Below are positions 23,841 through 53,893 of a DNA stretch of 64,000 bases, one piece after another (the stretch's first letter is position 1; each line of letters starts with the position of its first letter). Below the pieces are notes generated by a model. That model had not been told where the DNA came from. It saw nothing but the letters and a program-made list of their open reading frames with translations, and searched no databases. Origin of the DNA: an uncultured Oscillospiraceae bacterium (GTDB taxonomy: Bacteria; Bacillota; Clostridia; Oscillospirales; Oscillospiraceae); the NCBI GenBank assembly GCA_964609305.1, contig CAZSRK010000001.1:20411-84410 (forward strand), in the 5' to 3' direction. The translations under genes were made by a program, and so were the position numbers.

Positions 23841-25754
23841 TTACATGGACTCGCCCTCGTACAGCATCGGGAAGCTGACGACGGCCTTGAACAGATCGCC
23901 GTCGAGAAATATCTCAAAATTCCCGCCCATGAGCTCTGCGAGGCTGCGCGCTATCGAAAGGCCCAGCCCGCTGCCCTCGGTGCTGCGGGAGCTGTCGCCG
24001 CGCACGAAGCGCTCCATGAGCTCCGCAGGCGTTATGTTCAGCTCGTTTGCCGAGATATTGCGGAAAGTTACGAACACGCCGCCATGCACGCCCTCGGCAC
24101 TTATATAGGCGCGCGTGCCCGGGAGGGCATATTTGCGGATGTTGGACAGAAGATTTTCAAAGATGCGCCAGACCTGGCGGCCGTCAGCCATTATCGGAAG
24201 CGCCCTGTCCGGCACCGAGAGCACGAGCTTCAGCCCCGCCTGGGCAAGCCGGTCGCTGTACTCTCCTGCGGACTGCCGCAGCATTTCGGACACGTCGACA
24301 CGCTCCATGTCAAGCTTTATCGCACCGGAGCTGGCCTTTGATGCCTCGACAAGATCCTCCATCAGTTTCTTGAGCCGCGCCGACTGGCGGTCGATGACCT
24401 CGATATATTCCTGTGCCTTCTCATTTTCTATGTCCTCTTTCTTGAGCAGGTCAACATAGCTTATTATGCTCGTCAGAGGGGTCTTGATGTCGTGGCTGAC
24501 GTTTGTGATAAGCTCAGTCTTGAACCGCTCGGACTTCATGCGTTCCTCGACGGCCCTGGACATTCCCTCGGACACGCTGTTTAGATTCTCCGCGTGCTTC
24601 TTAAACTCCCAGAACATGCCGTTTGTGTCCGTTTTGAAGTCGATATTTCCCTTTGCAAGCTCCTGAGCGCCCTGCTGAAGCCTGCGCATCTGAAGCGCGA
24701 CATATCCCACGCCTACTAGCAGCGCGCAGTCGAGCACGAACAGCAGGAAAAACGCAAGGCCGCTCGAGAGCATGAACACGGCCAGCACGATGTTGAGAAA
24801 CGCCGCCGCACAGAACACGACAAGGCTCTTCCACACCAGAGGCAGGCTGTTGAATACTGATTTTACGGCGCGGAAAAACTTCTTAACAAGTCTCCAGCAC
24901 CATCTGATCACCTTGTAGCAGATGGTGTTGCGCCACCACGCCCCCGCCTTTGCCCGCGCGGAAAAACAGACGATGACATGGGCGCACAGCGCGGCGAAGG
25001 CCGCGGTGCACAGCGCAGCGAAAACAAGCCTCAGAGTGTTCAGGCTCACCGCGCTGTCCAGGCTCACATCATCCAGCGCTATTAGGAAACCCGCGCCAAG
25101 CAGGACGCCGACTGCGAGAGCAAGGGCGAGGTGCAGATCCAGCGGAAAGCGGCGGTTTATCCACGCAAGGCACACCTGTTCCGAGCCGTTCTTTCTGCCC
25201 GCTCCGCAAACGAGGAACACAAGGCAGACTATCGCAGCTGCAAAGGATATGAGCGTCAGCACCAGTACCGCACCGCGGTTTTGCATGGCCCAGTTATAGG
25301 CTGCGTAGGTAAAGTACAGCCCGTCCCTTACCATCGGTGAGCGCAGATAGAAGCTGACGGTAAAGTCCTGCTCCTCCCATTCCCCGTCGCCTGTCTGGAC
25401 CCAGTGGTCGAGGCCGATGGAGTCTATGAACACGGCCCGCTCGCCGTCACAGTTTTGCATAAGAGCCCTGCCGTCTTCATCGTACAGGACGTAGAGCAGG
25501 TTTTCGCTTTCGATATACGGCTCATTATCGTTAAGGTATGCATCCATTATGTCATAATAGTTGCTCCAGAGCTCGCCATGGAGAATACCGCTGTCATAAA
25601 ATCCCCGGCTGTCGTTGTCGAACCAGGCCTCCTCGATGCCCAGAACGCATGTGAGGCCGCCCGCACAAACGGCCACGGCCAGCGCCGCAAACAGAAGAAA
25701 GCAGATTATCTTGCACGGCAGCGTATAAGTAAAGTGGAATTTTTCCTTTTCCAT
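23841..25754 (-). CDS. sensor histidine kinase with a large polytopic N-terminal domain
   Basis: H-box VSHDIKTPLTSIISYVDLL, N-box IFENLLSNIRKYA and G-box GSGLGLSIARSL. Several TM helices lie upstream. Confidence 0.9.
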   Translation of the reverse strand: MEKEKFHFTYTLPCKIICFLLFAALAVAVCAGGLTCVLGIEEAWFDNDSRGFYDSGILHGELWSNYYDIMDAYLNDNEPYIESENLLYVLYDEDGRALMQNCDGERAVFIDSIGLDHWVQTGDGEWEEQDFTVSFYLRSPMVRDGLYFTYAAYNWAMQNRGAVLVLTLISFAAAIVCLVFLVCGAGRKNGSEQVCLAWINRRFPLDLHLALALAVGVLLGAGFLIALDDVSLDSAVSLNTLRLVFAALCTAAFAALCAHVIVCFSARAKAGAWWRNTICYKVIRWCWRLVKKFFRAVKSVFNSLPLVWKSLVVFCAAAFLNIVLAVFMLSSGLAFFLLFVLDCALLVGVGYVALQMRRLQQGAQELAKGNIDFKTDTNGMFWEFKKHAENLNSVSEGMSRAVEERMKSERFKTELITNVSHDIKTPLTSIISYVDLLKKEDIENEKAQEYIEVIDRQSARLKKLMEDLVEASKASSGAIKLDMERVDVSEMLRQSAGEYSDRLAQAGLKLVLSVPDRALPIMADGRQVWRIFENLLSNIRKYALPGTRAYISAEGVHGGVFVTFRNISANELNITPAELMERFVRGDSSRSTEGSGLGLSIARSLAELMGGNFEIFLDGDLFKAVVSFPMLYEGESM

Positions 25755-25769: not shown

Positions 25770-26458
25770 TCAGGTTTCGGAGAGCTTGTAGCCTTTCCCC
25801 CAGACGACCTTGATAAAGCGCGGCTCGGCCGGGTTTATCTCCAGCTTCTCGCGCAGATGCCGGATGTGCACGGCGACGGTCCCCTCGGCGCCGTAGGGGT
25901 CGTCCTTCCACACGGCCTTGTAGATCTGCGCGGATGAAAACACCTTGCCCGGCGAGCGCATCAGAAGGCTGAGTATGTCATACTCCGTCGGCGTGAGCGA
26001 GACCGGCTCCCCCGCGTTGGTCACGCTCTTGGCCTCATCGTCGAGCGTCAGCGGCCCTATGGTTATAACGCCATCGCGCTTTGCCATACCGCCGAGGTCC
26101 GTATATCTGCGAAGCTGTGCACGCACGCGCGCCATCAGTTCGACGGGGTTGAAAGGCTTTGTGACATAGTCATCCGCTCCGACGTTCAGACCCAGTATCT
26201 TATCCATGTCCTCCCCCTTTGCCGACAGGAAGATAACGGGCACGTTCGAGCTCTCGCGTATTTTGCCGTTGCCGTGACGCCGTCCATATCCGGCATCATG
26301 ATGTCCATAAGCACCAGCTCTATACGCTCCCTGCCGAGCACCTCGAGGGCCTGCCGGCCGTCGGCCGCCTCATATATGCCGTAGCCCTCGGCGCGCAGGT
26401 ATATGGCCAGTGCGTTTCTTATGTCGCGCTCATCGTCGCAGATGAGAATGTTCAGCAT
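25770..26458 (-). pseudogene. OmpR-family response regulator, split by a 1-nt frameshift
   Basis: ORF 26186-26458 encodes the receiver N-half (ILICDDERDIRNAL...VLMDIMMPDMDGVTATAK). ORF 25770-26243, in another frame, continues with PVIFLSAKGEDMDKILGLNVGADDYVTKPF and the winged helix (VWGKGYKL). The junction maps to a short A/T run near 26261-26264. Confidence 0.85.
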
Positions 26459-28720: not shown

Positions 28721-28766
28721 AAAAACGCCCCTGTCAAGATTTTTATATCTTGACAGGAGCGTTTTA
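28721..28766. terminator. bidirectional terminator between the polymerase gene and the carbamate kinase gene
   Basis: ACGCCCCTGTCAAGAT-TTTTAT-ATCTTGACAGGAGCGT, flanked by A-run and T-run. Confidence 0.85.
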
Positions 28767-28771
28767 ACTTA

Positions 28772-29710
28772 TTATTGCCTGATTATACGGGTCCCGGTCT
28801 CTCCCCGGACGCCGGCGCCGGCCTTTTCCAAAAGGGTTATCAGCGCCTCTCGCCCTTCGCCGCCACTCACGAACTGCACCGATGCCTCCATCTTCGGCAA
28901 CATTGAGCCCGTGCCAAACTGCCCCTCGAGCGCGTATTTCTCCGCCTGCTCCACTGTTATACAGTCGAGCTCCTGCTGGTCCTCCCGTCCAAAATTGATG
29001 CAGACCTTTTCTACCGCGGTCAGAATGATAAGTCGGTCGGCGCCGAGCTTATCGGCCAGCAGGGCCGAGGCAAAGTCCTTATCTATGACAGCCGCTGCGC
29101 CCTTGAGGTGATACCCCTCGGTGCGGAAGACCGGGATCCCGCCTCCGCCGCAGGCAATCACCACAAGACCCGCCTCGACCATGTCCCGGATGGAGTCTAT
29201 CTCTATTATGCGCCGCGGCATGGGAGAGGACACCACGCGGCGGTAGCCGCGGCCCGAATCCTCAATGACGGTATAGCCGCGCTCCTTCGTCAGGTGCCGC
29301 GCCTCCTCCGCCGTCATAAACGCGCCAATGGGTTTGGTGGGGTTCTGGAACGCGGGATCTTCCCTGTCGACCTCCACCTGCGTCAGGACAGTGGAAACAC
29401 CTTTGGATATCCCGCGCCCGAGCATCTCCTCGCGCAGGGCGTTTTGCAGGTCATAGCCAATGTAGCCCTGGCTCATCGCCACGCAGACGGACAGGGGGCA
29501 TGGTATATATTTCTCCGGATCGGAACGGGTCAGCTCCGTCATGGCCTGCTGGAGCATACCGACCTGCGGCCCGTTACCATGGGTTATTACTATGTCATGC
29601 CCGGCCTCTATAAGATCCGTTATTGCCCTTGCAGTCTGCTTGACCGCCTTCATCTGCTCCGGCAGGTTGGAGCCGAGGGCATTTCCCCCAAGCGCAATTA
29701 CTATCCTCAA
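28772..29710 (-). CDS. arcC: carbamate kinase
   Basis: MRIVIALGGNAL...VITHGNGPQVG...ACGGGGIPV are carbamate kinase signatures. It is the last gene of the ygeW operon, like E. coli yqeA. Confidence 0.9.
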   Translation of the reverse strand: MRIVIALGGNALGSNLPEQMKAVKQTARAITDLIEAGHDIVITHGNGPQVGMLQQAMTELTRSDPEKYIPCPLSVCVAMSQGYIGYDLQNALREEMLGRGISKGVSTVLTQVEVDREDPAFQNPTKPIGAFMTAEEARHLTKERGYTVIEDSGRGYRRVVSSPMPRRIIEIDSIRDMVEAGLVVIACGGGGIPVFRTEGYHLKGAAAVIDKDFASALLADKLGADRLIILTAVEKVCINFGREDQQELDCITVEQAEKYALEGQFGTGSMLPKMEASVQFVSGGEGREALITLLEKAGAGVRGETGTRIIRQ

Positions 29711-29721
29711 CTTTTTCTCCC

Positions 29722-30924
29722 TCAGCCATTGAGCGTCTGTCTCTCAACGCCCCACTCGTCAAGCTTTTCCAGCATTTTGGCCGGGTCTTTGACCTTTGCA
29801 AGGAAGATCATCGCCGCGATTATATACGGCTTGAAGCCGGCCTGCTTATAAAGAGGCACGCGGTAACGGTCAAAGACGGAGCCGACCACCTCGCCCTCGG
29901 CGCAGGACACTCCGGTTATATCTGCCGGCAGGCAATGCAGATACAGCGCCTTGCCCCCGCGCGTGAGCGCCATCATCTCCTCGGTGCACTCCCAGTCCCT
30001 GTGCTCGGAATTCTGCGCCAGAAGCTCCTTCTCCAATGCGTCTATTCCGTCAAAATCGCCGTTTCCGTAAAGCTCCGTGCGCTTTTCCATCGCGGCAAAG
30101 GGCGCCCAGCTCTTGGGATAGACGATGTCAGCATCCTTGAACGCCTCGGCCATGGAATTTGTCTTGGTAAACGAGCCGCCGGACTTTTCCGCGTTGGCCA
30201 GCGCAACCTGTTCTACCTCGGGCATTACCTCATAGCCCTCCGGATGGGCCAGCACAACGTCCATGCCGAAGCGTGTGAACAGGCCGATGACACCCTGAGG
30301 CACGGACAGAGGTTTGCCGTAGCTGGGCGAATATGCCCAGGTCATTGCAATTTTTTTACCCTTGAGGTTTTCCACGCCGCCGAACTCATGGATCACATGC
30401 AGCAGGTCGGCCATGGTCTGGGTCGGGTGGTCGATGTCGCACTGAAGGTTCACCAGCACCGGGCGCTGCTTGAGCACGCCGTCCTCATACCCCTCTCTGA
30501 CCGCATCGGAAACGGATTTCTGATAGGTATGGCCCTTGCCTATGTACATATCGTCGCGGATGCCTATCACATCGGCCATGAAGGAAATCATGTTCGCAGT
30601 CTCCCTCACAGTCTCCCCATGTGCTATCTGGCTCTTGCCCTCGTCAAGATCCTGCACCTGCAGGCCAAGGAGGTTGCAGGCCGATGCAAAGGAAAATCGC
30701 GTGCGGGTGGAGTTGTCGCGGAAGTTGGATATGCCGAGTCCGGAATCAAATATCCTGCAGGATATGTTGCGCTCACGCAGGTTGCGCAGGGCGTCGGCCA
30801 CGGCGAAAACGGCGTCCAGCTCGTCGTCGGTCTTGTCCCAGGTGAGGAAAAAGTCCTCGCCATACATGTCCTTGCAGTCGAGTTTTTTGAGCCTTTCCAC
30901 AAGCTTTTTGAGTTTTGCGTCCAT
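29722..30924 (-). CDS. ygeW: YgeW-type (knotted) carbamoyltransferase
   Basis: The start at MDAKLKKLVERL follows AAGGAGAG. DNSTRTRFSFASA is the carbamoyl-phosphate site, and DIDHPTQTMADLLH and HCLPADITG are also present. The overall pattern matches YgeW rather than OTC or ATC. Confidence 0.8.
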   Translation of the reverse strand: MDAKLKKLVERLKKLDCKDMYGEDFFLTWDKTDDELDAVFAVADALRNLRERNISCRIFDSGLGISNFRDNSTRTRFSFASACNLLGLQVQDLDEGKSQIAHGETVRETANMISFMADVIGIRDDMYIGKGHTYQKSVSDAVREGYEDGVLKQRPVLVNLQCDIDHPTQTMADLLHVIHEFGGVENLKGKKIAMTWAYSPSYGKPLSVPQGVIGLFTRFGMDVVLAHPEGYEVMPEVEQVALANAEKSGGSFTKTNSMAEAFKDADIVYPKSWAPFAAMEKRTELYGNGDFDGIDALEKELLAQNSEHRDWECTEEMMALTRGGKALYLHCLPADITGVSCAEGEVVGSVFDRYRVPLYKQAGFKPYIIAAMIFLAKVKDPAKMLEKLDEWGVERQTLNG

Positions 30925-30946
30925 CTTTGTGACTCTCCTTTGTTTT

Positions 30947-32359
30947 TTATTTGATGTCATTGCCGGTCAGCGCGGCACGAAACTGCGTGGCGTCCTGCGT
31001 CCCTTCCTCCCGCCTGTACAGCCCGGGTACCGCCGCATACACCGCCGCGCAGGTGACCAGGTCCTGCTTCCAGGTTATCTCGTTCGGCGCGTGCGCCCAG
31101 CTCTCCGCGCCGGGACCAAAGCCAACGCAGGGAATACCATAGCGGCCCTGTATGGACACGCCGTTTGTTGAAAAGGTCCACTTGTCGGTCAACGGCCGGC
31201 CGCGGCGCAGATGCATCGCGTCGCGGTAATTATCCTCATCGGCATAGCCGATGCGCTCTTCGCCGAACATGGCGCGGTGCGCCTGTGCGAGCGCCTGCAC
31301 ATGTGCGGAGGTCTGCCTGTTTATCCAGGTCGGGAAATAGCATTCGGTCTCATATACCTCGCCTGTCCAGCTCGGCCGGTCGTACATATACATGGATACC
31401 GTGACGTCCTGTCCGTACTTTTTGACGGCGGGCAGCGCGCGTATCTCGTCCAGACAGGAATCCCAGGTTTCGCCGGCGGTCATACGCCTGTCTATCGACA
31501 CGGAGCAGGAGTCGGCCACCGCACAGCGGCTCGGGCTTGTAAAGAAGATCTCGCTGACCGTGCAGGTACCCCGGCCCAGAAAGCGCGCATCCTGCCAGTG
31601 TTCCGGGTTGTATTCCGGCTCCAGCATCTTTACAAGGCCCTTGATCTCCACGCTGTCATCCGCCGGGTTTTCGTTCAGCGCTCGCACGTCCTGAAGAATA
31701 TCCGCCATTTTATATATCGCGTTGTCGCCGCGCTCCGGCGCGCTGCCGTGGCAGGATACGCCCCTGACGTCGACGCGTATCTCCATGCGTCCGCGGTGGC
31801 CGCGGTATATGCCGCCGTCGGTCGGCTCCGTCGAAATGACAAATTCGATCCTGCTTCTCGCGTCCTCGGGTCCGTCAAAGTACTTGTTGACGATGTACTG
31901 CCAGCACATGCCGTCGCAGTCCTCCTCCTGTACGGAGCCGACGACCATGAGCCTGTATTCCTCGGGTATCAGGTCGAGATCTTTCATTATCTTCGCGCCG
32001 TACACGGCGGAGGCCATGCCCCCCTCCTGGTCGCTGCCGCCGCGGCCGTAGATTATCTCGTTGTCCTCCCAGCCCTCGTAGGGGTCGGCGCTCCAGTTGT
32101 CGATATTGCCGATGCCGACGGTGTCGATGTGGGAGTCGATGGCGATTATCCTGTCCCCATCGCCCATCCAGCCGATTACGTTGCCGAGCCCGTCGACCTC
32201 CACTTTGTCGAAGCCGAGCTTTTCCATCTCCGCCTTTATACAGGCGACGACCTCTCCCTCGTGGCAGCTCTCGCTCGGAAGCCTTATCATCGCGCGCAGG
32301 AACGCGCTCATGTCCTCCCGGTATCCCTTAGCAGCCGCCTTTATCGCTTCAAAATCCAT
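30947..32359 (-). CDS. ygeY: YgeY-like M20-family amidohydrolase
   Basis: [20 protein letters not shown] and EEDCDG are M20 metal and catalytic motifs. It is adjacent to ygeW and ygfK, as in the E. coli yge/ygf region. Confidence 0.8.
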
Positions 32360-32378
32360 AAATTTCCCTCCTTTTGTA

Positions 32379-35351
32379 TCAGTAAACCAGCCAACTGTAA
32401 TTATTTATGACGGCCCGGACCATATCTCCGGCCATATCAGGTATCTCATCAAGCGTATATTCGTTAGTTCCTTCTCCGATACGGACAAGTATCTGATTAT
32501 TTTCAAGAATAAGGAAACCGGGATTTTCACTGCTGTCAAAGTCCTCGCGCGTTGAAAAGAGTGTGAACTTCGTGCGGTACGGCCCGCCAACATAGGGGCA
32601 GAAGACCTCACAGTTGCCGCACTCGTTGCACATGGCGTCAACATGAAGTATCTGCCGCGCGCCGTTTACAGTCACGGCGATGTTTGCCCTGTTCGGACAT
32701 ACCTCACAGCAGGTCTCGCAGACGGTCGGGCACTCAAGGCAGCGGTAGGAATTGCTGACGTTATCAAGATCAGTGGCAAGATACCCGCGCTTGAACCTTG
32801 CAGACGTATCGTCAGGAGCAGCGTTTATCTCTTCATATTTTGACAGGTCGAGTCCGGCGATTGCCTGCACCGCCGCCGTCGCGCCTGCGATCGCCTCGAC
32901 GACTGTCTTGGGGCCGGTCCTCGCGTCGCCGGCGAGCCAGACTCCCTTAACATTAGTGCTTCCATCGGCATTGCAGACGGGCCTTCCCCGCTTGTCAAGC
33001 TCGATACCGAAACGGGAATAGAGCTCGCTGTCGGTACGCTCCCCGACAGCGGCGATGACGACGTCCGCGTCGACGTCCTGCGTCTGGCCGGTCGCGACAG
33101 GGCTGCGGCGGCCGCTGGAGTCCGGCTCGCCCAGACGCATGACCTGACAGGTCAGTTTGCCATCCCTCACCCCGACGGGCGCCAGCAGCGGCCGGAACTC
33201 GACGCCTTCGTGCATCGCCTCGACAAGTTCCTCCTCGTCGGCGGGCATGTTGCGCACATCCCGGCGATAGACGAGCGATACCTTCTCAACACCGCGGCAG
33301 CGCAGCGCGGCGCGTGCGGCGTCCATGGCGGTATTGCCTCCGCCGACTATGACAACGTTTTTACCGGGCTGAAGCGCCTCGCCCCGGGTCTTGAAATCAC
33401 GAAGAAATTCGATGACATTCCTCGCCTCGCCGTACTCCAGCCCGAGCTTTCCGGGATTCCATGCTCCTGTTGCGATAATAATGGTCTCAAAGCCAAGGGC
33501 TGCTATCTCATTTGGAGAATTTATCTCTCTGCCCGTTATGAACTCGACGCCCAGCGCCCGACAGAGCTCGAGGTCCCGATCAACCGTCTCTTCGCTGATG
33601 CGGAAGGAGGGAATTACGTTCCTGACGATGCCTCCGGGCTTTTCCAGGCGCTCGAATACCGTCGCCTTAAAACCCGCGCGGGCCAGGAAAAAAGCGCAGG
33701 ATATGCCGGCGGGGCCGCCGCCTATGATACCCACCTTTCGGCCGTTTGGCGCGGCTGGCCTGATCTCATTCAGAAGCTCTGCCTGCCCGTTCAGGGCGCT
33801 TTCAAGCTTGACGGCGCGGATGTCTACCGGCGCCTCATAGTGGTTTCTCATGCACTTGTTCATGCAGGTATGCGGGCAGATGGTGCCCGTGATGTTCGGC
33901 AGAGGGTTACGCTCGGTTATAACACGCAGCGCCTCGAGGTATCGTCCCTCTCCTGCCAGTCGCAGGTATGCGGGTATATCCTGATTTATCGGGCAGGTAC
34001 GGTGACAGGGTGCGGTAAAGCAGTCGAAGACAGGAAGCTGCTGCTCCAGCCTGCGCGAGGGCAGGGGCTTTACCGGCTTGCGGTAATGCCCGTCCTGCAA
34101 AGCCGCCGCGGCAAGAGCCGAGACCTTTTCCGTGCTTACCTTCTCAAATGGAACGTATTCCACATCCGCCATCATATCCGCAAGCTGGCACAGCCTGTTG
34201 TATCCGCCGGATTTGAGCAGCGTCGTGGCCATGGTTATGGGCCAGATGCCCGCGTTGAACAGATCCTCAATATTAAACGCATCCGCTCCCCCGCAGTAGC
34301 TTATCCGGAGCTTTCCATCAAATTCCGCGGCGAGCCGGCTGCACAGCTCTACCGTGAGCGGATACAGGCTCCTGCCGGACATATACATCTCCTCGGCCGG
34401 GAGCTCACCCTGCGTGACCTTGACGGGAAACGTGTTCGTGAGCTTGACCCCGAAGCTCAGGCCATGGCTTTCGGCCAGCGCCATGAGCCGGCGGAACATC
34501 GGCACCGCATCGGCATACTGCAGATCGTCGTTGAAGTGGAAATCGTCAAAGGCCATGTAATCGAAGCCCAGCGAATCAAGCGTTGAACGGGCAAATTTAT
34601 ATCCGAGCAGCGTGGGGTTGCATTTCACGAAAGTGTTGAGCTTTTTTCTCTCAACAAGATATGTCGCAATGCTTTCTATCTCTTTTGGAGGACATCCGTG
34701 CAGTGTAGAGAGGGTTATGCCGGAGCAGATACGCGGGGAAATACTGTCGATATAGTCCCAGCTTACCTTGTAGAAGCTGGAGAGATTGCCTTTGGCCCAG
34801 GACATACACTCCTGCCAGACGGCGGAGCCGGACGCGTCCCTGAGCCCCTCTATGAAAGCGTCTATCTTCGGCGACTGTATTCCGGCCAGGTCGTATCCTA
34901 CGGACATGTTGAACATGAACCCGTCCGGACGGCCGAGGCCGAATTCCAGTGAGATGAGCTTGAGCACAAACCAGGCCTTGACATACTCGTCGAACGCCTC
35001 CTGTACGGTCAGCTCGGTCGACCACTCGCAGTTATAGGCCTCGTCGCCGGAGGCGATGCAGGGCTTGTTTACACATGCGGCCAGCTCCCGTCCATCCACG
35101 GTCTGGACAGTCTTGAGCTCGAAAAAACGTCCGCCGGCGACATAGGCTGCGACTATGTTCTGCGCAAGCTGCGTATTCGGGCCTGCTGCGGGGCCGAAGG
35201 GCGTCTCCAGTTTCTCTCCGAACAGCTCCAGTGTCCGGCCGGGGGCCCTGTGCAGCTTTGAAACCCCGAAGACCGTGCCCTGGCTGCGGTATTCGGCGAG
35301 GATATGGGTCATCAGTTTTTCAAATGGTATCGGTTTCATTATATCGCTCAT
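32379..35351 (-). CDS. ygfK: YgfK-like Fe-S flavoprotein oxidoreductase (DPD-like barrel, GltD-like FAD/NAD(P) domains, ferredoxin domain)
   Basis: The 990-aa product has two dinucleotide folds ([21 protein letters not shown] and [15 protein letters not shown]). The C-terminus carries cysteine clusters [19 protein letters not shown] and [12 protein letters not shown]. Confidence 0.85.
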
Positions 35352-35370
35352 AATCTACCTCCTGTCGGGC

Positions 35371-36702
35371 TTAGCCGTTGAGCTCTTTCCAGAGCTTGTC
35401 CGCACTCGCCCGTATATGGGCGTTTATCGCTTCCTCATCGATATTCACGAGCTCTCGGTCGCGCATGAGCACCTTTCCGTTTACGACGGTGGTCTGGCAC
35501 TGTCGGCCGGTCATGCCGAATATCATGTGCCCGTCTATATTCGCGTCGGAGAACTGGGTAAAGGGCTTATAGTCCATGACGATGACGTCTGCGGCAGCGC
35601 CCTCGGATAGTATGCCCAGCGGTTTTCCGAAGTGGCGCGAGGCGATGGCCGGGTTGTTTCTGAACATTGCCCCCGTTACCTCCGTCCATGCGACGCCGGG
35701 CAGACAGGCGTTGTGCCGCTGGATGATGAGCGCGACTTTCAGGCTCTCGAGCATGTCGTGGGTATAGGCGTCCGTGCCCAGACCGACAGTTATGCCCTTT
35801 TTGCACATCTGGAGCACCGGCGAGCAGCCGACGGCATTGCCCATATTGGACTCCGGATTATTCACGACCGCCGTGTTCGTCTCTTTTATCAATTCCATCT
35901 CCGCAGTATTTATATGTATGCAGTGGCCAAGCAGCGTACGCTCGCCGAGTATACCGTGGTCATGCAGGCGCTGGACAGGACGGCGGCCATAATTTTGCAG
36001 GCTGTCATATACGTCGTTCATCCCCTCCGAGACATGGATGTGGTAACCCATGAGGCCGTTGTTCTCCTGTACGCAGCGCTCAAAGGTCTTGTCGGAGAGT
36101 GTGAAGAGCGCATGCATGCCGAACATCGGCTTTATCATGTCGCTGTTCTGCTCGATTGCCCATCTGCCAAACTCGACGTTCTCACGTATCGCCTGAAGGC
36201 ACTTCTCCTCCCCGTCACGGTCGGACACCTCGTAGCACAGGCAGGCGCGCTCGCCCAGCTCCTTTGCAACGTCGGCTATCGCAAAAAGTGATCCGGGGAT
36301 CTCCGCATAGCTGGCGTGATGGTCAAATATGGTCGTCACTCCCTGCTTTATACAGTCGATGATCGTCGCATAGGCGCTCGCGCGCGTGCCCTCGATGGTC
36401 AGATGGCGGTCAATGTTCCACCACATCCCGTCGAGCACTTCGAAAAAGTTCGTCGGCGCATACCCGTTTATGGACAGGCCGCGGGCCAGCGCGCTGTAAA
36501 TATGCGTGTGCGCGTTTATAAAGCCGGGCATTATCACACCTCCGCGCGCGTCGACGAACTCAGCGCCGAGATACTTCTGGCGTATCTGTGAAAAATCGCC
36601 GACCTCCACGATGGTATCCCCGTTGCAGGCGACCGCACCGTCCTCAAAATACGGTTTTTTCTCATCCCTTGTAATGACTTTTCCGTTTCCTATTATGAGC
36701 AT
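35371..36702 (-). CDS. ssnA: SsnA-like amidohydrolase
   Basis: The start at MLIIGNGKV follows GGAGG. It has the metal-binding motif PGFINAHTHIYS and lies immediately upstream of ygfK, as in E. coli. Confidence 0.8.
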   Translation of the reverse strand: MLIIGNGKVITRDEKKPYFEDGAVACNGDTIVEVGDFSQIRQKYLGAEFVDARGGVIMPGFINAHTHIYSALARGLSINGYAPTNFFEVLDGMWWNIDRHLTIEGTRASAYATIIDCIKQGVTTIFDHHASYAEIPGSLFAIADVAKELGERACLCYEVSDRDGEEKCLQAIRENVEFGRWAIEQNSDMIKPMFGMHALFTLSDKTFERCVQENNGLMGYHIHVSEGMNDVYDSLQNYGRRPVQRLHDHGILGERTLLGHCIHINTAEMELIKETNTAVVNNPESNMGNAVGCSPVLQMCKKGITVGLGTDAYTHDMLESLKVALIIQRHNACLPGVAWTEVTGAMFRNNPAIASRHFGKPLGILSEGAAADVIVMDYKPFTQFSDANIDGHMIFGMTGRQCQTTVVNGKVLMRDRELVNIDEEAINAHIRASADKLWKELNG

Positions 36703-36898
36703 TGCGACTTTACCTCCTCGATGCTTTTCCATCAAAAAGGGCGTCCACCTTTCGTGAACGCCCTTTCACGCGGCAGCAAAACGGCTTCAGCCTGCTCAAA
36801 GAGCGGGAGTATCAGCCCGTGCGCGAAGCACTTCGTTACAGCCGAAGAATATATTACCTGTATATCTGATTTTACCATCACTGTGTATTCCATTGCAA
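36703..36898 (-). promoter_or_regulatory. promoter plus about 165-nt structured leader ending in an intrinsic terminator, upstream of ssnA (candidate riboswitch or attenuator, class unknown)
   Basis: On the minus strand: TTGCAA (36893-36898), an 18-nt spacer, then TGgTAAAAT (-10 at 36869-36874). Several local hairpins follow. The terminator AAGGGCGTTCAC-GAAA-GGTGGACGCCCTT plus TTTTG (about 36731-36767) lies only about 25 nt before the ssnA RBS. A competing hairpin CGTGAA-AGGGCG-TTCACG overlaps the terminator 5' arm. Confidence 0.5.
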
Positions 36899-36906
36899 TA
36901 GCCAAA

Positions 36907-38169
36907 TCAAAAAATTCTTTTTCCGGACACAAATTTTGCGCAGCAGTCCTCTCCGCGGGAGAGGAAAATGAACCGCTCGAGACGCTCGCGCATCGAATAG
37001 GGCCGATTTGTACCGAACCTCGCCTCGTCGGCGACGACGGCGTCGAACTCAAACCCCTCGCAGAAAGCGCCGGTGTCTCCGAAGAACGCGCCTGCTCCGC
37101 GTGTCGCGAGATAGAACACCTCGTTGCAGCCGAGCGCTGCCTCCGGCTCCGAGCACAGCCTTGCGCGCAGTTTTGACGCTCGCATCGCCTCGCGCATCGC
37201 CTCGTTTATATCAAGGCTTTCTCCGCCGGATATGTCCGTACCCAGGCCGATGTTGACCCCCGCCTCGAGATATCGGCGCACGGGGGCGACGCCGCTTTTG
37301 ATATTGGAGTTGGAGCTGGGGCAATGGGCGATGAATGCGCCGCGCTGGAGCATAAGCTCAGTCTCCCGCCGGTCGTTATAAAGACAGTGCGCCATAACCG
37401 TCCTGTCCGTCAGCAGCCCGAAGCCGTCATATACGTCGGCATAATCCAGTGCGGAGGGGAAGAGCCTTTTGACCCACTCTATTTCGTCGTGCGTCTCGTC
37501 CAGATGTGACTGGACATACAGCCCCCGCCCGCGCACGAGCTCTCCCAGCCGGCGCAGCAGCTCATCCGTGCAGCTGGGCGCAAAGCGCGGGGTTATTATG
37601 GGTTTTGTGTTTTCAAACCCGGCGCAGCCGTCCAGCCAGCGCAAAGTCTCGCGCATCGAGCTGTTCGCGTCTTTCTCCCTCAGGAAATCGGGACAGTTCC
37701 TGTCCATGTTTACCTTTCCAACCAGGGTATGCAGCCCGCTCTCCTCCAGAAGACGCATGAGAAGCAAAGTCGCGGGCACATGCACCGTTGCGAATATGGC
37801 CGCCCGGGTCGTGAATCCCCGCCGGAGCTCTCCGACGAACGCGGCGTAGACCTTTTCGGCATACTGCATGTCCTCAAACTTTGCCTCTTCGGGAAAGGTC
37901 AGGCCGTCGAGCCACTGTATGAGCTCATGGTCCATGCCCAGTCCGAGGTCGGCATACTGGCTGGCATGGGTATGCAGATCGGAAAAGCCCGGCATCACGA
38001 ACTTTCCGGAAAAATCCAAAATGGGCAGTCCGGAATATCTCTCCGGCAGGGATCGAAACAATCCGGCGCAGCGCCCATCTTCACAGACAAGGAAAGAATC
38101 CTCCGAAAATTCGGCGCCTTTAGGTGTCGGCGCATGCACTATGTCGCCGCGCAGAACAAAATCCTTCAT
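36907..38169 (-). CDS. guaD: amidohydrolase-superfamily guanine-deaminase-like enzyme
   Basis: The start at MKDFVLRGDIVH follows ACGGAGG (the track ORF extends to 38328). Motifs are PGFSDLHTHASQ, HLDETHDEIEWV and GLGTDISGG. Confidence 0.65.
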   Translation of the reverse strand: MKDFVLRGDIVHAPTPKGAEFSEDSFLVCEDGRCAGLFRSLPERYSGLPILDFSGKFVMPGFSDLHTHASQYADLGLGMDHELIQWLDGLTFPEEAKFEDMQYAEKVYAAFVGELRRGFTTRAAIFATVHVPATLLLMRLLEESGLHTLVGKVNMDRNCPDFLREKDANSSMRETLRWLDGCAGFENTKPIITPRFAPSCTDELLRRLGELVRGRGLYVQSHLDETHDEIEWVKRLFPSALDYADVYDGFGLLTDRTVMAHCLYNDRRETELMLQRGAFIAHCPSSNSNIKSGVAPVRRYLEAGVNIGLGTDISGGESLDINEAMREAMRASKLRARLCSEPEAALGCNEVFYLATRGAGAFFGDTGAFCEGFEFDAVVADEARFGTNRPYSMRERLERFIFLSRGEDCCAKFVSGKRIF

Positions 38170-38372: not shown

Positions 38373-39833
38373 ATGATCGACCTTACCATAAACAAAGACG
38401 CGCTTGGGCGCAACATCTCCATCGCCCGCGAAAACGGCATCACGATCCCCACCTTTGCGCAGATGAAAGATCCGGGACTCATACCGGACGATATAAAGCA
38501 AAAACTCAAAACCACCGGCATGTGGGACGTTGACCCGGTCAACCTTTTCCGTGTGACCTGGAAAAACGAACCTGTCAGCAGCGGCGGTCTTTTCGGCGCG
38601 CCGAACTACATCGAGCTGCCCAGTGAGCTGACCGGCGTACCCTGCCGTATCCTTGCGCTGGTAGGAAAGTGGTTTCCGACCGGATGCCATAAGGTCGGTG
38701 CCTCCTTCGCCTGCCTGGTACCCCGTCTCGTGACCGGCCAGTTCGACGCGCGCAACCAGCGGGCCGTCTGGCCCAGTACAGGCAACTATTGCCGCGGCGG
38801 CGCGTTCAACTCCCGCCTGCTCGGCGCGCAGGGCGTGGCTATCCTCCCTGCGGAGATGAGCCAGGAGCGCTTTGACTGGCTCAGGAGCATCGGCTCACAG
38901 GTGATCGCGACCCCGGGCTGCGAATCCAATGTCAAGGAGATTTTCGACAAGACCAACGAGCTGCGTCAGGATCCCTCCTGCATGATATTCAACCAGTTTG
39001 AGGAGATGGGCAACCACCTGTGGCATTATGAGGTCACAGGCTCTGCCCTGGCAGAAACGTTTGAGAGCATAAAGCGTCCCGGCGACCGCTTCGCCGGCGC
39101 GTGCTTCACGACGGGCTCTGCCGGCACCATCGGCTCCGGCGACAGGCTAAAGGAGCTTTATCCGGGACTGAAGCTCGCCGCAGGAGAGGCGCTGCAGTGC
39201 CCAACCCTGCTTGAAAACGGCTTCGGCGGCCACCGTATCGAGGGCATCGGCGACAAGCACGTTCCCTGGATACACAACGTCAGGAATACAGACCTTGTTA
39301 TCGATATCGACGACAACGACAGCTTTGACCTGACCCGCCTGTTCAACGAGCCGCAGGGCCGCGAATACCTCGTGCGGGAGCTAGGCGTCGAGCCGGAGTT
39401 TGTCCAGAAGCTCGGCCTTCTCGGCATCTCGGGCATCGCCAACGTCCTGTGCTGCATCAAAATGGCAAAGTATTATGAATTTGACGAGCATGATATCGTG
39501 GCGACCGTGCTGACCGACAGCATAGACATGTACGGCAGCCGCATCGAGGAGCTGCGCGAGCGCGACGGCGAGTACACGCCGACAAAGGCCGCCGTCGACT
39601 ATGCCCTGCATCTGGGCGGTATCAAGACCGACAACATGCTGGAGCTGACCTATCCCGCGCGCAAGCGTGTGCACAACCTCAAGTATTACACCTGGGTCGA
39701 GCAGCAGGGGCACACTGCCGATGAGCTCAACGCGCTCTGGTACGACGTTGAGGGCACCTGGGGCGCCGTGCATAAACAGGCGCAGGAGATCGACGAGCTG
39801 ATATGCCAGTTCAACGAGGCGGTCAGGGCATGA
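38373..39833 (+). CDS. fold-type-II (Trp-synthase-beta/cysteine-synthase-like) PLP-dependent enzyme with long N- and C-terminal extensions
   Basis: The start at MIDLTINKD follows GGGAGG. The candidate PLP lysine is in PTGCHKVGASF, and STGNYCRGGA and TTGSAGTIGSG (glycine loop) are present. At 486 aa it is larger than CysK or DAP ammonia-lyase. Confidence 0.6.
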   Translation: MIDLTINKDALGRNISIARENGITIPTFAQMKDPGLIPDDIKQKLKTTGMWDVDPVNLFRVTWKNEPVSSGGLFGAPNYIELPSELTGVPCRILALVGKWFPTGCHKVGASFACLVPRLVTGQFDARNQRAVWPSTGNYCRGGAFNSRLLGAQGVAILPAEMSQERFDWLRSIGSQVIATPGCESNVKEIFDKTNELRQDPSCMIFNQFEEMGNHLWHYEVTGSALAETFESIKRPGDRFAGACFTTGSAGTIGSGDRLKELYPGLKLAAGEALQCPTLLENGFGGHRIEGIGDKHVPWIHNVRNTDLVIDIDDNDSFDLTRLFNEPQGREYLVRELGVEPEFVQKLGLLGISGIANVLCCIKMAKYYEFDEHDIVATVLTDSIDMYGSRIEELRERDGEYTPTKAAVDYALHLGGIKTDNMLELTYPARKRVHNLKYYTWVEQQGHTADELNALWYDVEGTWGAVHKQAQEIDELICQFNEAVRA

Positions 39834-41056
39834 AAAACGTCAAGTGCCTCAAATGCATAAAATGCGGCCGGGAGTATTCGCCCGCACCGGACGCCACGAT
39901 CTGCCAGTGCGGCGGCATCCTGGACGTGGTTTACGACTATGACTACATACGCTCCGTTGTCAGCCGCAGGTATTATGCGCAGCACAGCGAGCGCTCCATG
40001 TGGCGTTACCGCGCCTTCCTCCCGGTCGAGGATGAAACCCCGGCGCCGCCGCTGCGTGTCGGATGGTCCCCGCTGTATGAGAAACCGGGGCTGGCTTCCG
40101 ACCTGGGCATCGCGCGCCTCTGGGTCAAGGACGACGGGCTGAACCCGACCTCCAGCCTCAAGGACCGGGCAAGCTCCATGGCGGTCGCCAAGGCCATGGA
40201 AGCGGGATATGGCACCATCGCCTGCTCCAGCACCGGCAACGCCGCCTCCTCTTTGGCGGGGAACGCGGCGGCGGCCGGCCTTAAGACCTATATATTCGTG
40301 CCGTCCCGCGCGCCCGCCGGCAAGGTCGCGCAGCTTCGCATTTTCGGCGCGACGGTGATCTCCGTCGAGGGCAGCTATGAGGATACCTTTCGCCTGTCTG
40401 CCGAGGCGATAGAAAAATACGGCTGGTACAACCGCAACGCCGCCATAAACCCGTATCTCATGGAGGGGAAAAAGACCGTTGCGCTCGAAATCGCCGAGCA
40501 GCTCGGCTGGGAGGTCCCGGACTATGTTGCGCTTTCGGTCGGCGATGGCTGCACCATTGCGGGGGTCTGGAAGGGCTTTAAGGACCTGTACGGTGCCGAG
40601 CTTATCGACAGGCTGCCCCGGCTCATAAGCGTTCAGGCACAGGGCTGCTGCCCGATAAACCGTGCGCTCGAAACCGGAAGGCCCGTCGAGCCAATGGGCG
40701 AGAACACCATTGCCGACAGCATCGCCGTCGGCGTGCCGCGAAACCCCGACAAGGCGATGGCCGCCGTACGCGAATCGAACGGCCTGACTGTCGAGGTGTC
40801 GGACGAGGAGATATTCTCCGCAATGCGGCTGCTTGGCCGCAGCTGCGGCGTTTTTGGCGAGCCTGCCGGCGCTGCCGGTACTGCGGGCCTGGTCAGGGCC
40901 TGTGAAAAGGGCCTGCTCCCTGCCAACGCTACCGTGGTGTCGATCGTGACGGGAAACGGGCTAAAAGATACGGCCAGCGGCATCAAGGCCGCCGGGGAGC
41001 CCGTCCGTGTCGAGCCCTGCCTTGAGCTGGTTGAAAAGGCGCTTGGCCTTCAATAA
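39830..41056 (+). CDS. threonine-synthase-like PLP-dependent enzyme with an N-terminal zinc ribbon
   Basis: MKNVKCLKCIKCGREYSPAPDATICQCGG provides four cysteines. NPTSSLKDRAS carries the PLP lysine, and SSTGNAASS and TGNGLKD are present. Its start overlaps the stop of the preceding PLP gene (ATGA). Confidence 0.65.
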   Translation: MKNVKCLKCIKCGREYSPAPDATICQCGGILDVVYDYDYIRSVVSRRYYAQHSERSMWRYRAFLPVEDETPAPPLRVGWSPLYEKPGLASDLGIARLWVKDDGLNPTSSLKDRASSMAVAKAMEAGYGTIACSSTGNAASSLAGNAAAAGLKTYIFVPSRAPAGKVAQLRIFGATVISVEGSYEDTFRLSAEAIEKYGWYNRNAAINPYLMEGKKTVALEIAEQLGWEVPDYVALSVGDGCTIAGVWKGFKDLYGAELIDRLPRLISVQAQGCCPINRALETGRPVEPMGENTIADSIAVGVPRNPDKAMAAVRESNGLTVEVSDEEIFSAMRLLGRSCGVFGEPAGAAGTAGLVRACEKGLLPANATVVSIVTGNGLKDTASGIKAAGEPVRVEPCLELVEKALGLQ

Positions 41057-45728: not shown

Positions 45729-47522
45729 ATGTTACGCCACTTCTGCAGATCCCCGCTTTGCGACGCGGCTCCGGCTCTCATCTCGACCGCAATGGGCCGC
45801 TCGCCGGCGGAGCTGGTCATCCGCTCGGCAAGGCTTGTGAACGTCTGCACTGGCGAAATATTGCCGGATACGGACGTGGCCGTCACCCAAGGCCGCATCG
45901 CGCTGGTCGGCGACGCGGCGCATTGCATAGGAGAAGGCACACGGGTAATAGATGCAAACGGCGCATATCTCGCCCCCGGTTTTCTGGACGGGCATATACA
46001 TGTCGAGTCGTCCATGCTCTCTGTCGGGGAGTATGCCCGGGCCGTCGTGCCGCACGGCACCGTCGGCATATATATGGACCCTCACGAGATATGCAATGTC
46101 CTCGGCATGGAGGGCGTGCGCTGTATGATAGAGGATTCGCACCGTGCTCCGCTCAAGACGATGGTCACGGTACCCTCCTGCGTGCCCGGAGTGCCGGGGT
46201 TTGAGGATACGGGCGCCGAGATAACGGCGGAAAACGTCGCGGAAATGCTGAGCTGGCCGGAGGTAGTAGGTCTCGGAGAGATGATGAACTATCCCGGCAT
46301 CCTCGAGGGCAGCGAGCGTCCGCTGTCCGTCGTACGCGAGACGCAAAAGGCAGGGATGCCCGTCACGGGGCACTACCCCTCTTCTGATATCAGGGGCCTG
46401 AACGCATACATAGCCGCCGGCATAAATTGCTGCCACGAATCCACGACTGAGACGGACACACTTTCCAAAATGCGCCTTGGAATGTATGCGATGCTGCGCG
46501 AGGGCAGCGCGTGGCACGACTTGGCCGAGGTCTCCAAGGCCGTCACTCGGCACGAGGTCGACACGCGCCTTGCCCTTCTCGTGACGGACGACGCACATCC
46601 CAATACGCTTATTACAAACGGGCACCTTGACTATCTGCTGCGCCGCGCCATGCAGGAGGGCATTCCCGCCATTCAGGCGATACAGATGGTCACGATAAAT
46701 ACCGCGACCTGCTTCGGCATGCAGGCCGAGCTGGGCAGCATCGCGCCCGGAAAATGCGCGGACATGGTGCTCATCGGTTCACTCGAGGATATGGACGTGA
46801 GGATGGTGTTTATTGACGGCGAGCTTGTCGCCGAAAATGGCCGGATGACCCGGGAACCGGGAAAATATGAATACCCCGCCTTTGCGCGCAGCACAATGAA
46901 CGTCGGCGGCCCCGTCTCCCCCGAAGTTTTCCGGCTCCCCGCCCCGTCGGAGGGACTGACCCGCGTCAGGTGTATCGAGGTCATCTCGGGAAAGACCGTC
47001 AACCGCGAACGCATCGTCACGCTTCCGGTAACAGAGGGATACGTCGGCAGCGACACGTCGCAGGACGTGCTCAAGGCGGTCGTGTTCGAGCGGCACAGGG
47101 CCACAGGCAAAAAAGGCTTCGGCTTTGTCAAGGGGTTTGGAATACGCCGCGGCGCGATGGCCTCGACCGTCTCGCACGACGCGCACAATCTCCTCGTTGT
47201 CGGCACCTGCGACGAGGACATGGCCCTGGCGGCAAACACGCTCATCGAAAGCGGCGGCGGGATGTGCGCCGTACGGGACGGAAGGGTCCTGGGACATGTG
47301 AAGCTGCCCATAGCCGGGCTCATGAACGACCGTCCGGCGCAGGATATGGCCGCTGACGTGGCCGTGCTCGAAGACGCCTGGCGTGAGATAGGCTGTACAT
47401 TGCCGTCCCCGTTCATGACGATGGCGCTTATCCCGCTGGCCTGCATCCCGGAGCTGCGGCTGACTGACCGCGGGCTCGTTGACTGCCGCGATTACCGCTT
47501 TGCGGAGCTTTTTATCGGGTGA
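45729..47522 (+). CDS. ade: adenine deaminase
   Basis: The 597-aa product has PGFLDGHIHVESS and a two-domain architecture typical of Ade. A strong AAAGGAGG RBS is present. Confidence 0.85.
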   Translation: MLRHFCRSPLCDAAPALISTAMGRSPAELVIRSARLVNVCTGEILPDTDVAVTQGRIALVGDAAHCIGEGTRVIDANGAYLAPGFLDGHIHVESSMLSVGEYARAVVPHGTVGIYMDPHEICNVLGMEGVRCMIEDSHRAPLKTMVTVPSCVPGVPGFEDTGAEITAENVAEMLSWPEVVGLGEMMNYPGILEGSERPLSVVRETQKAGMPVTGHYPSSDIRGLNAYIAAGINCCHESTTETDTLSKMRLGMYAMLREGSAWHDLAEVSKAVTRHEVDTRLALLVTDDAHPNTLITNGHLDYLLRRAMQEGIPAIQAIQMVTINTATCFGMQAELGSIAPGKCADMVLIGSLEDMDVRMVFIDGELVAENGRMTREPGKYEYPAFARSTMNVGGPVSPEVFRLPAPSEGLTRVRCIEVISGKTVNRERIVTLPVTEGYVGSDTSQDVLKAVVFERHRATGKKGFGFVKGFGIRRGAMASTVSHDAHNLLVVGTCDEDMALAANTLIESGGGMCAVRDGRVLGHVKLPIAGLMNDRPAQDMAADVAVLEDAWREIGCTLPSPFMTMALIPLACIPELRLTDRGLVDCRDYRFAELFIG

Positions 47523-47527
47523 TACTT

Positions 47528-49006: not shown

Positions 49007-49792
49007 ATGCAAAACAGCCCTATTCTGCTCAGCAAGCTTTCGCTTGACAGCGACATCCCGCTTTACTCACAGCTTGTGGGCATAGTAAAACGCAACATAT
49101 CTGCTGGGACGCTGACCGCCGGCGATCTCCTTCCCTCCGAAACCGAGCTGTGCAAGGCTTTTGACATCAGCCGCAGCACCGTGCGCCAGGCTATCGGCGC
49201 GCTGGAGAGCGAGGGGCTTGTCGTACGCAAACAGGGGCGCGGCACCTTTGTTGCCGAGCCGAAGATGCACAGAAAGACAGACACTGTGTATTCATTCACA
49301 AGCGAGATAAGCGCAATGGGTCTTACCCCGTCAAGCACGCTGCTCGAGTTCGACATTGTCGAACCGTCTCCGGAGATAATAGCTGTGCTGGAGCTGGGCA
49401 GTCCGGATACGCCAATATACCGCTTCTCCCGCATCAGGAATGTCGACGGTGAACCGCTGATACTGGAGACGAGCTATTACCCGCAGTACATCTATCCCCG
49501 GCTTACGCGCGAGCTTTTGCAGACACACAGTTTTTACAGCCTGCTGTACGAGGTCGGCATCGTACCTTTCTCCGCCGTGGATACTTACAGCGCCGTCACT
49601 CTCTCCGGGCGCGAGGCGAAGCTCCTCGGCTGCAACGCGGGGGATCCCGCTTTCTCCGCACAGCGCAGGACGAGGACGGAGTCCGGCATGACCTACGAAT
49701 TCACGCACAGCATCATCCGCGCCGATCGGGTGAGCCTCGACGTTGCGCTCACGCGCGACGGGGTCTCCTTCGCAAGGCGTGTTGACAAATAA
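49007..49792 (+). CDS. GntR/HutC-family transcriptional regulator (UTRA effector domain)
   Basis: LYSQLVGIVKRNISAGTLTAGDLLPSETELCKAFDISRSTVRQAIGALESEGLVVRKQGRGTFV is the GntR wHTH. The C-terminal region has UTRA-like length. Confidence 0.9.
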   Translation: MQNSPILLSKLSLDSDIPLYSQLVGIVKRNISAGTLTAGDLLPSETELCKAFDISRSTVRQAIGALESEGLVVRKQGRGTFVAEPKMHRKTDTVYSFTSEISAMGLTPSSTLLEFDIVEPSPEIIAVLELGSPDTPIYRFSRIRNVDGEPLILETSYYPQYIYPRLTRELLQTHSFYSLLYEVGIVPFSAVDTYSAVTLSGREAKLLGCNAGDPAFSAQRRTRTESGMTYEFTHSIIRADRVSLDVALTRDGVSFARRVDK

Positions 49793-51792: not shown

Positions 51793-51814
51793 ACATCTAA
51801 TAAAATTGGATCGC

Positions 51815-51965: not shown

Positions 51966-52012
51966 TCGTGTGAAGCGCTATCACGGGTCGAACCGGCAAA
52001 GTCCGTATTCCC

Positions 52013-52934: not shown

Positions 52935-53009
52935 TCGGGTGCACGGCGAGGGACGGCCATCGTCCCTCGCTTTTTCCCGTTTTTGAATTAAGGAAAGGAG
53001 CGTGTCCCC

Positions 53010-53891: not shown

Positions 53892-53893
53892 AA

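Follow-up and report, generated by a model that had tools for sequence, protein, structure and literature searches.

Predicted genes for the ATP-yielding part of anaerobic urate degradation, and a candidate YgeX substitute, in an uncultured Oscillospiraceae bacterium

A stretch of 64,000 nucleotides from an uncultured Oscillospiraceae bacterium (assembly GCA_964609305.1; contig CAZSRK010000001.1, here C1, positions 20411-84410; hereafter the window) carries a run of genes at 28772-38169 that resemble parts of the Escherichia coli yge/ygf region, i.e., ssnA, ygfK, ygeY, ygeW and a carbamate kinase gene, preceded by a guaD-like gene. The question raised by this locus is which pathway these genes serve, and whether the genome encodes the rest of it. 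An earlier note on this DNA had read them as an anaerobic purine/urate catabolic gene set, and orthology, together with the rest of the pathway in the genome, supports that view. We assign a probability of about 0.85 to the reading that the ssnA-to-carbamate kinase operon encodes the central, ATP-yielding part of the reductive uric acid (2,8-dioxopurine) pathway of anaerobes. This reading is based on equivalog-level scores of the five core genes, their 32-67% identity to the E. coli proteins, and the co-occurrence of the remaining pathway genes, apart from ygeX, in this genome. The assembly (2.33 Mb, 117 contigs) is 97% complete, with an estimated contamination of 0.13%.

The pathway has been described in two 2025 preprints (bioRxiv 10.1101/2025.05.19.654654; 10.1101/2025.04.24.650524). 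Urate is converted to 2,8-dioxopurine by XdhD or DOPDH. YgfK reduces 2,8-dioxopurine, SsnA carries out ring opening, and HyuA yields 2,3-diureidopropionate. One ureido group is then phosphorolysed by YgeW, and YqeA uses the carbamoyl phosphate to form ATP (Liu et al., bioRxiv 10.1101/2025.04.24.650524). YgeY generates 2,3-diaminopropionate (DAP), and YgeX converts DAP to pyruvate (bioRxiv 10.1101/2025.05.19.654654; 10.1101/2025.04.24.650524). In vitro and genetic evidence for these functions comes from the E. coli and Clostridium sporogenes orthologues, and the pathway has been reported in more than 2,000 metagenome-assembled genomes. The view, expressed in the earlier note, that most of the reactions are unassigned no longer holds, as the two preprints assign all of them; Li et al. 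and Liu et al. disagree on which ureido group is removed first. Its expectation of ATP gain through the carbamoyltransferase and carbamate kinase has been borne out with the E. coli enzymes (bioRxiv 10.1101/2025.04.24.650524).

The genes of the locus are given below, with profile scores in bits followed by the curated cut-off.

28772-29710, minus strand: carbamate kinase, YqeA type (TIGR00746, 364/358; NF009007, 373/266)
29722-30960, minus strand: YgeW knotted carbamoyltransferase (TIGR03316, 776/500)
30947-32359, minus strand: YgeY M20 amidase, long form (NF009555, 609/321)
32379-35351, minus strand: YgfK (DOPOR) Fe-S flavoprotein (TIGR03315, 1327/835)
35371-36702, minus strand: SsnA amidohydrolase, in an open reading frame (ORF) open to 36735 (NF005540, 647/444)
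36907-38169, minus strand: probable guanine deaminase, amidohydrolase type (TIGR02967, 344/375)

All six co-directional ORFs lie where they had been reported. Proteins were placed in subfamilies by NCBIfam profile scores and by identity to the E. coli K-12 proteins. The five names proposed for the core genes, SsnA, YgfK, YgeY, YgeW and carbamate kinase, are all above the curated cut-offs, and the generic relatives, i.e., ornithine carbamoyltransferase (OTC), GltD and DapE/ArgE, give far lower profile scores than the specific subfamilies. The core proteins thus belong to the named subfamilies and not to ordinary OTC, GltD or generic M20 proteins. Identity to the K-12 proteins is 67% for YgeW, 62% for YqeA, 59% for YgeY, 43% for YgfK (over its full length), 32% for SsnA and 31% for GuaD. 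Close homologues are found in uncultured Oscillospiraceae and other gut Clostridia. The likely SsnA start is the ATG at 36702, which is preceded by GAGGAGG; the NF005540 match begins at residue 12 of the ORF.

The guaD product is favoured as a guanine deaminase by three lines of evidence. Its best solved relative is the guanine deaminase-related protein of Clostridium acetobutylicum (PDB 2i9u, E 4e-109; human GDA, E 1e-72). The metal- and substrate-site motifs HxH...Q, TPRFAP, HLxE and GTD, which we take to be guanine-specific, align with those of E. coli GuaD. In relatives, the guaD gene adjoins xdhA-xdhB. Two other roles were considered and rejected: a substitute for HyuA, because a genuine HyuA is encoded in the window, and an 8-oxoguanine deaminase, because that model scores 106 bits versus 344 for guanine deaminase. 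The likely guaD start is the ATG with a GGAGG ribosome-binding site at 38169, and the longer ORF to 38328 is probably spurious. The description of guaD as fused to ssnA has to be dropped, since the two genes are about 200 nt apart, with a promoter-like site, the ssnA RNA motif and a terminator lying between them.

The earlier gene set was accurate for the operon and missed a hydantoinase gene, hyuA, and an adenine deaminase gene at 45729-48904. Together with the gene that follows, likewise overlooked, these are:

45729-47522, plus strand: adenine deaminase, an entry point for adenine (TIGR01178, 543/472)
47519-48904, plus strand: HyuA-type D-hydantoinase, the step between SsnA and YgeW (TIGR02033, 536/393)
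49007-49792, plus strand: GntR/HutC-family regulator, downstream of hyuA (GntR-family matches below the curated cut-offs)

HyuA is 39% identical to E. coli HyuA and 47% identical to a cluster-embedded HyuA of Butyricicoccus. The region upstream of the GntR/HutC gene contains the palindrome ATGTATGATACAT, and the protein may act as a local regulator.

As had been noted, no xdh, ygeX, yqeB/yqeC or selenium genes occur in the 64 kb of the window. The suggested search of the whole genome for a molybdenum hydroxylase revealed two, both on contig C9, and selenium genes are located there as well. One is an 849-aa Fe-S/Mo fusion of the selenium-dependent xanthine dehydrogenase (XDH) family (TIGR03311, 1344/830 bits), which is only 25% identical to E. 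coli XdhD. The other comprises XdhA (47% identical to the E. coli protein), with XdhB and XdhC also on C9. The same contig encodes SelD (TIGR00476, 401 bits), YqeB (TIGR03309, 340 bits) and YqeC (PF19842, 98 bits), and the molybdenum cofactor genes moeA, moaA, moaC and moaB are on contig C7. In size and architecture, the 849-aa protein agrees with the C. sporogenes DOPDH, in which the Mo domain covers residues 307-839. Homologues of the 849-aa protein adjoin ygfK in each of the five related loci where one is present. On these grounds we infer that it is the DOPDH equivalent.

Orthology with enzymes studied in E. coli and C. sporogenes predicts the following route. GuaD would convert guanine to xanthine, and adenine would be deaminated by the enzyme encoded at 45.7 kb. 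XdhABC would oxidize hypoxanthine and xanthine to urate, from which the selenium-dependent 849-aa hydroxylase would remove the 6-oxo group to give 2,8-dioxopurine. After reduction of this compound by YgfK, SsnA would open the ring, and HyuA (47.5 kb) would open the hydantoin ring to form 2,3-diureidopropionate. YgeW would phosphorolyse one ureido group, with carbamate kinase using the carbamoyl phosphate to make ATP, and YgeY would hydrolyse the second ureido group to leave DAP.

The only pathway part that is truly missing is YgeX (DpaL, 2,3-diaminopropionate ammonia-lyase). Genome-wide, the top-scoring protein with the YgeX family model NF006058 is IlvA, at 79.7 bits (cut-off 276); a search with E. 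coli YgeX found nothing in the genome above 26% identity over 199 aa. Divergent from guaD are two genes for enzymes dependent on pyridoxal phosphate (PLP):

38373-39833, plus strand: PLP486, a CysK/TrpB-like 486-aa fold-type II PLP enzyme (PF00291 only)
39830-41056, plus strand: ThrC-like PLP enzyme with an N-terminal zinc ribbon (NF006050, 311/303 bits; also passes TIGR00260)

The ATG of the second gene overlaps the stop codon of the first (ATGA). The nearest solved relatives of PLP486 are cysteine synthases (only E 1e-18), and the protein has extensions of about 80 aa at the N terminus and about 150 aa at the C terminus. An AlphaFold2 model built from a 17-row alignment (mean pLDDT 65, active-site loops below 50) was too poor for fold or pocket comparison. 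The ThrC-like protein was rejected as the housekeeping threonine synthase, as the genome has a long-type ThrC on C38, IlvA on C16 and CysK on C56. Around the substrate-phosphate and PLP-phosphate site it reads NPYLMEG and VGDGCT, as opposed to NPxR[LI]EG and VGNAGN in solved ThrCs, and these changes, of the invariant Arg to Leu and of GNAGN to GDGCT, are kept in 63 orthologues. In work on the T. thermophilus threonine synthase structure, the invariant Arg is reported to bind the phosphate of O-phosphohomoserine. If this Arg contacts the substrate phosphate, its replacement by Leu, together with the change of Asn to Asp, would match a leaving group with positive charge, for instance the beta-amino group of DAP.

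Homologues of PLP486 number in the thousands at 70-78% identity. We analyzed 80 genomic loci, 59 of which have at least 4 kb of upstream sequence. Pathway genes are present in 52 of these 59, ygeY or ygeW in 40, and the ThrC-like gene in 50. In the commonest layout, a leftward ygeY-ygeW-carbamate kinase unit faces away from PLP486 and the ThrC-like gene, often with a YheO-type regulator gene in front of the pair. This regulator (PAS_6 + HTH_22, about 214 aa) is directly upstream of, or divergent from, PLP486 in 39 of the 80 loci (e.g., L028, 9360-10004). It has no homologue in the genome studied here, where the GntR regulator and the ssnA RNA (see below) are candidate regulators of the cluster. 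In Butyricicoccus, the pair is located between hyuA and the DOPDH gene, and PLP486 homologues at 38-53% identity in two other families are again found inside purine clusters. Weaker PLP486-like matches (E about 1e-80) were considered as possible OrtB thiolase subunits. In two of the three loci analyzed (L102 and L104), the gene is part of a purine cluster and has a ThrC-like partner; in L103, the third, the context is not recognisable.

YgeX is absent from 38 of the 50 PLP486 genomes that were checked. Anaerotignum sp. MSJ-24 is the one named isolate in this group of 38, and both systems occur in, e.g., Lawsonibacter celer, Flavonifractor sp. An82 and Diplocloster spp. In a class-wide sample of 300 genomes, 15 were YgeW-positive; 10 of them had YgeX without PLP486, and 5 had PLP486 without YgeX. 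The latter five come from just two families and are not five independent events. Since the pair travels with ygeY-ygeW-carbamate kinase in several clostridial families and occurs mostly where YgeX is absent, it is likely a substitute for YgeX. It most likely takes DAP on into central metabolism, possibly by chemistry different from that of DpaL. One option would be formation of pyruvate through racemisation and elimination. Another is suggested by lineages with serC and serA after the pair, where DAP could pass to serine or phosphoserine and on to 3-phosphoglycerate.

Co-oriented serC genes follow PLP486 or the ThrC-like gene in nine loci (L046, L051, L054, L062, L063, L072, L078, L081 and L087), followed by serA in six and DUF1015 in five. 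Canonical ygeX is present in 9 of the 80 loci, five of which are among these nine. A serine or phosphoserine route is an open possibility raised by the serC loci, which speak against a simple replacement of YgeX. The 12 PLP486 genomes (of 50) that also hold YgeX, sometimes in one cluster, likewise indicate that the pair is not a simple one-for-one replacement. We found no mention of the pair in three papers on the pathway or in the 2025-26 titles and abstracts returned by a search on 2,8-dioxopurine.

Several observations weigh against the assignment of the operon to the urate pathway. The pathway genes are distributed over at least three loci of the 117-contig assembly. Identity to the E. coli enzymes reaches only about 32% for SsnA and GuaD, and the latter falls below its family cut-off. 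The DOPDH assignment comes from family, size and synteny only. No YgfM was found in the genome, and no purine transporter in the cluster, the sole candidate being on contig C26 with 23-26% identity. A search of sequencing runs for the locus returned four, each with at most 7% of the words and none of them useful RNA. For the exit step, the counterweight is the coexistence of YgeX and PLP486 in some genomes, described above. The modest identity of SsnA to the tested E. coli enzyme and the curated family names 'putative selenate reductase' and 'selenium metabolism-linked' would fit an operon acting on another substrate, i.e., a different N-heterocycle or selenate, with the resemblance to urate genes reflecting family membership only. 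We consider this very improbable, because all five core genes exceed equivalog cut-offs and the complete set of urate-route enzymes is accompanied in the same genome by the selenium-cofactor trait. In addition, selenate is neither needed by E. coli YgfK nor enhances its activity, and the flanking guanine and adenine deaminases, with XDH in relatives, point to purines. The chance is slighter still that C9, with its XDH, DOPDH and selenium genes, is misbinned and that the true genome is without a molybdenum hydroxylase. The assembly is in 117 contigs and probably derived from a metagenome, and the hydroxylase locus and the operon are on different contigs. Against misbinning, contamination is low, and C9 fits the bin by composition, with 58.5% GC (C1, 57%) and a tetranucleotide correlation with other large contigs of 0.955 (median, 0.976). 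Moreover, relatives have xdhA/xdhB and a DOPDH-type gene within 10 kb of PLP486, ssnA and ygfK.

A further alternative concerns the exit from the pathway, which might end at DAP. The cell would then gain ATP, and ammonia from three nitrogens, and would excrete DAP or use it otherwise; the pair would be merely co-regulated, carrying out, for example, serine, cysteine or selenium-related amino acid chemistry. This is unlikely in our judgement, if by no means negligible. It is consistent with the lack of YgeX anywhere in a 97%-complete genome, with the 12 of 50 PLP486 genomes that keep YgeX, and with serC (with or without serA and DUF1015) after the pair in nine loci, which hints at serine-pathway chemistry and not plain deamination. 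It also agrees with the behaviour of a C. sporogenes ygeX mutant, in which urate consumption continues and DAP builds up (Liu et al., bioRxiv 10.1101/2025.04.24.650524). On the other hand, YgeX and PLP486 are perfectly complementary among the YgeW-positive genomes of the class sample, and the pair occupies the place of E. coli ygeX beside ygeY/ygeW in several families and over deep divergence. Housekeeping CysK, ThrC and IlvA are, moreover, already provided by the genome. DAP is toxic to enteric bacteria, and leaving it unprocessed would therefore be costly, which also counts against a dead end. We therefore favour processing of DAP by the pair. A wider proposal, which is tentative and which we place somewhat below even odds, is that several clostridial families share a YgeX-independent variant of the pathway, in which the pair converts DAP (probably the D isomer) and the ssnA RNA is a riboswitch for a pathway purine, e.g., urate or 2,8-dioxopurine.

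Transcription of the core genes appears to be organized around the following elements.

36869-36898, minus strand: promoter-like site, TTGCAA-18-TAAAAT with an extended -10 TG (consensus match only)
36804-36851, minus strand: ssnA RNA motif RF03031 (51.6 bits; gathering score 37.3)
36735-36767, minus strand: attenuator-type terminator in the leader, past the ssnA RNA and ahead of the ssnA ribosome-binding site, 14-bp stem and U-run
28722-28765, minus strand: intrinsic terminator immediately past the stop codon of the carbamate kinase gene, 19-bp stem and U-run

The gaps from ssnA through ygfK, ygeY and ygeW to the carbamate kinase gene are 19, 19, -14 and 11 nt, and the terminator at the end has a folding energy of -31 kcal/mol (z = -9.4 versus shuffles). 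From this layout, the five genes are predicted to form a single transcription unit; guaD has a promoter-like site of its own. In many relatives, ssnA-ygfK(-hyuA) and ygeY-ygeW-carbamate kinase are separate units, and here they are joined under one leader. The RF03031 match covers the full model (1-48), is about 100 nt upstream of the ssnA ATG, and is the only copy in the genome. The leader terminator has an energy of -26.8 kcal/mol (z = -5.6). Because the arrangement of motif plus terminator recurs upstream of ssnA orthologues in two related loci, L020 and L067, the unit is probably switched by attenuation at this leader. The hairpin of L020 is the same, and that of the more distant L067 has the same position and an unrelated sequence.

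A shared operator among the promoters of the island was also considered and is not counted as evidence, as the signal is near chance level. The candidate sites were:

36822 and 38236 of the window, and 15744 and 12502 of C9, minus strand: GCACGGGC / ACGGGCCGT sites

On the coding strand, GCACGGGC is found in the ssnA RNA, in the guaD leader and in the spacer of the C9 DOPDH promoter, and ACGGGCCGT in both C9 hydroxylase promoters. The shared octamer occurs 141 times in the genome; by a rough estimate, about 4% of cases would show some exact 8-mer in three of the six regions, and 12-mer near-matches are at chance level.

The operon is an ordinary instance of a characterised pathway and adds no new chemistry. 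What appears unusual is that YgeX is lacking throughout the genome and a conserved candidate substitute is present, and that a putative regulatory RNA stands at the head of the whole ATP-yielding operon. Anaerobic urate degraders in the gut lower the urate load of the host, so that their pathway is of interest as a target for therapy of gout and hyperuricaemia. Screens in the literature have defined such bacteria by five genes including ygeX (Kasahara et al.) or at least four of seven C. sporogenes proteins (Liu et al., bioRxiv 10.1101/2025.04.24.650524). Genomes like this one would fail the five-gene rule and lose one marker in the four-of-seven rule, and the same holds for the 38 YgeX-less PLP486 genomes, which span Oscillospiraceae, Lachnospiraceae and Christensenellaceae. 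Estimates of uricolytic capacity in these abundant gut families may therefore be too low.

Other observations concern variation of the pathway proteins. YgeY has 470 aa versus 403 aa in E. coli, with 66% identity across 399 aligned residues, insertions of 7, 23 and 20 aa and an 18-aa tail; the long form is common to Oscillospiraceae orthologues, and those of Lachnospiraceae have about 395 aa. A second carbamate kinase gene (C1:15865-16641), about 4 kb before the start of the window, encodes a protein 51% identical to the operon kinase, and about 3 kb from it is a weak carbamoyltransferase match (C1:12332-12889). On a contig of the Butyricicoccus porcorum type (L016, 12927-17385), the DOPDH homologue has 930 aa with extra 4Fe-4S ferredoxin domains, and the product of the next gene, of 546 aa, aligns only with the first 456 residues and a short C-terminal piece of YgfK, so that it lacks the pyridine-nucleotide module. 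These two genes suggest that electrons reach 2,8-dioxopurine by a different route. In a genome of a low-GC clostridial family (G041; L102, 9823-10809), a 328-aa OTC-like carbamoyltransferase is encoded between ygeY and the carbamate kinase gene. It is only 33% identical to YgeW, and G041 was not scored as YgeW-positive; it may be a second substitution within the pathway.

Elsewhere in the window, an arginine deiminase locus is located at 56-58.7 kb, where ORF 57314-58705 (minus strand) reads as arcA from its sequence. The OTC gene is split by an apparent frameshift near 56825 into overlapping ORFs (56817-57206 and 56212-56832, minus strand), reflecting either a pseudogene or an assembly error, and is followed by a YfcC-like basic amino acid antiporter gene (54797-55978, minus strand). 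A lysine riboswitch (RF00168, 100 bits; 51814-51988, plus strand) is upstream of an amino acid ABC transporter operon (52092-54634). The ORF for an OmpR/VanR-type response regulator (25770-26243, minus strand) aligns with family profiles only beyond about position 71, so that the ORF is without most of the receiver domain, and the adjoining histidine kinase gene (23841-25754) is intact.

Among known systems, the locus can be compared with the E. coli cluster ygeW-ygeX-ygeY-hyuA-yqeA ... ygfK-ssnA-ygfM-xdhD (bioRxiv 10.1101/2025.05.19.654654), with which it shares YgeW, YgeY, YqeA, YgfK, SsnA, HyuA and GuaD at 31-67% identity. Orthologues of XdhABC, YqeB and YqeC, the predicted order of reactions and the ATP-yielding step are also common to both. 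In contrast to E. coli, the genes described here occupy three or more loci, ssnA-ygfK runs straight into ygeY-ygeW-carbamate kinase within one operon, YgeX, YgfM, MocA and the sigma-54 regulator YgeV are absent, and an ssnA RNA leader is present. Instead of XdhD, the predicted urate-reducing hydroxylase is of the clostridial selenium-dependent type (TIGR03311). In this respect the genome resembles C. sporogenes (bioRxiv 10.1101/2025.04.24.650524), which has a fused Fe-S/Mo DOPDH (XdhAC) of about 840-850 aa that depends on SelD and YqeB/C, with hypoxanthine and xanthine handled by a separate XDH; the same set is predicted here. C. sporogenes differs in having YgeX as the last step and the carbamate kinase gene elsewhere, whereas here the kinase gene is inside the operon and YgeX is lacking.

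YgeX/DpaL and the PLP486/ThrC-like pair have the same fold type (PF00291) and the same neighbourhood beside ygeY/ygeW. They differ in that two proteins would stand in for one and that, with the DpaL family model NF006058 (cut-off 276), the ThrC-like protein scores 56 bits and PLP486 gives no match. The arginine deiminase pathway, with OTC and carbamate kinase, follows a shared logic, in which ureido phosphorolysis gives carbamoyl phosphate and then ATP, as pointed out by Liu et al. (bioRxiv 10.1101/2025.04.24.650524); here the donor would be 2,3-diureidopropionate, and the transferase is of the knotted YgeW subfamily. Finally, compared with Rfam RF03031, the ssnA RNA motif itself is unchanged, and here it heads the whole ssnA-to-carbamate kinase operon.

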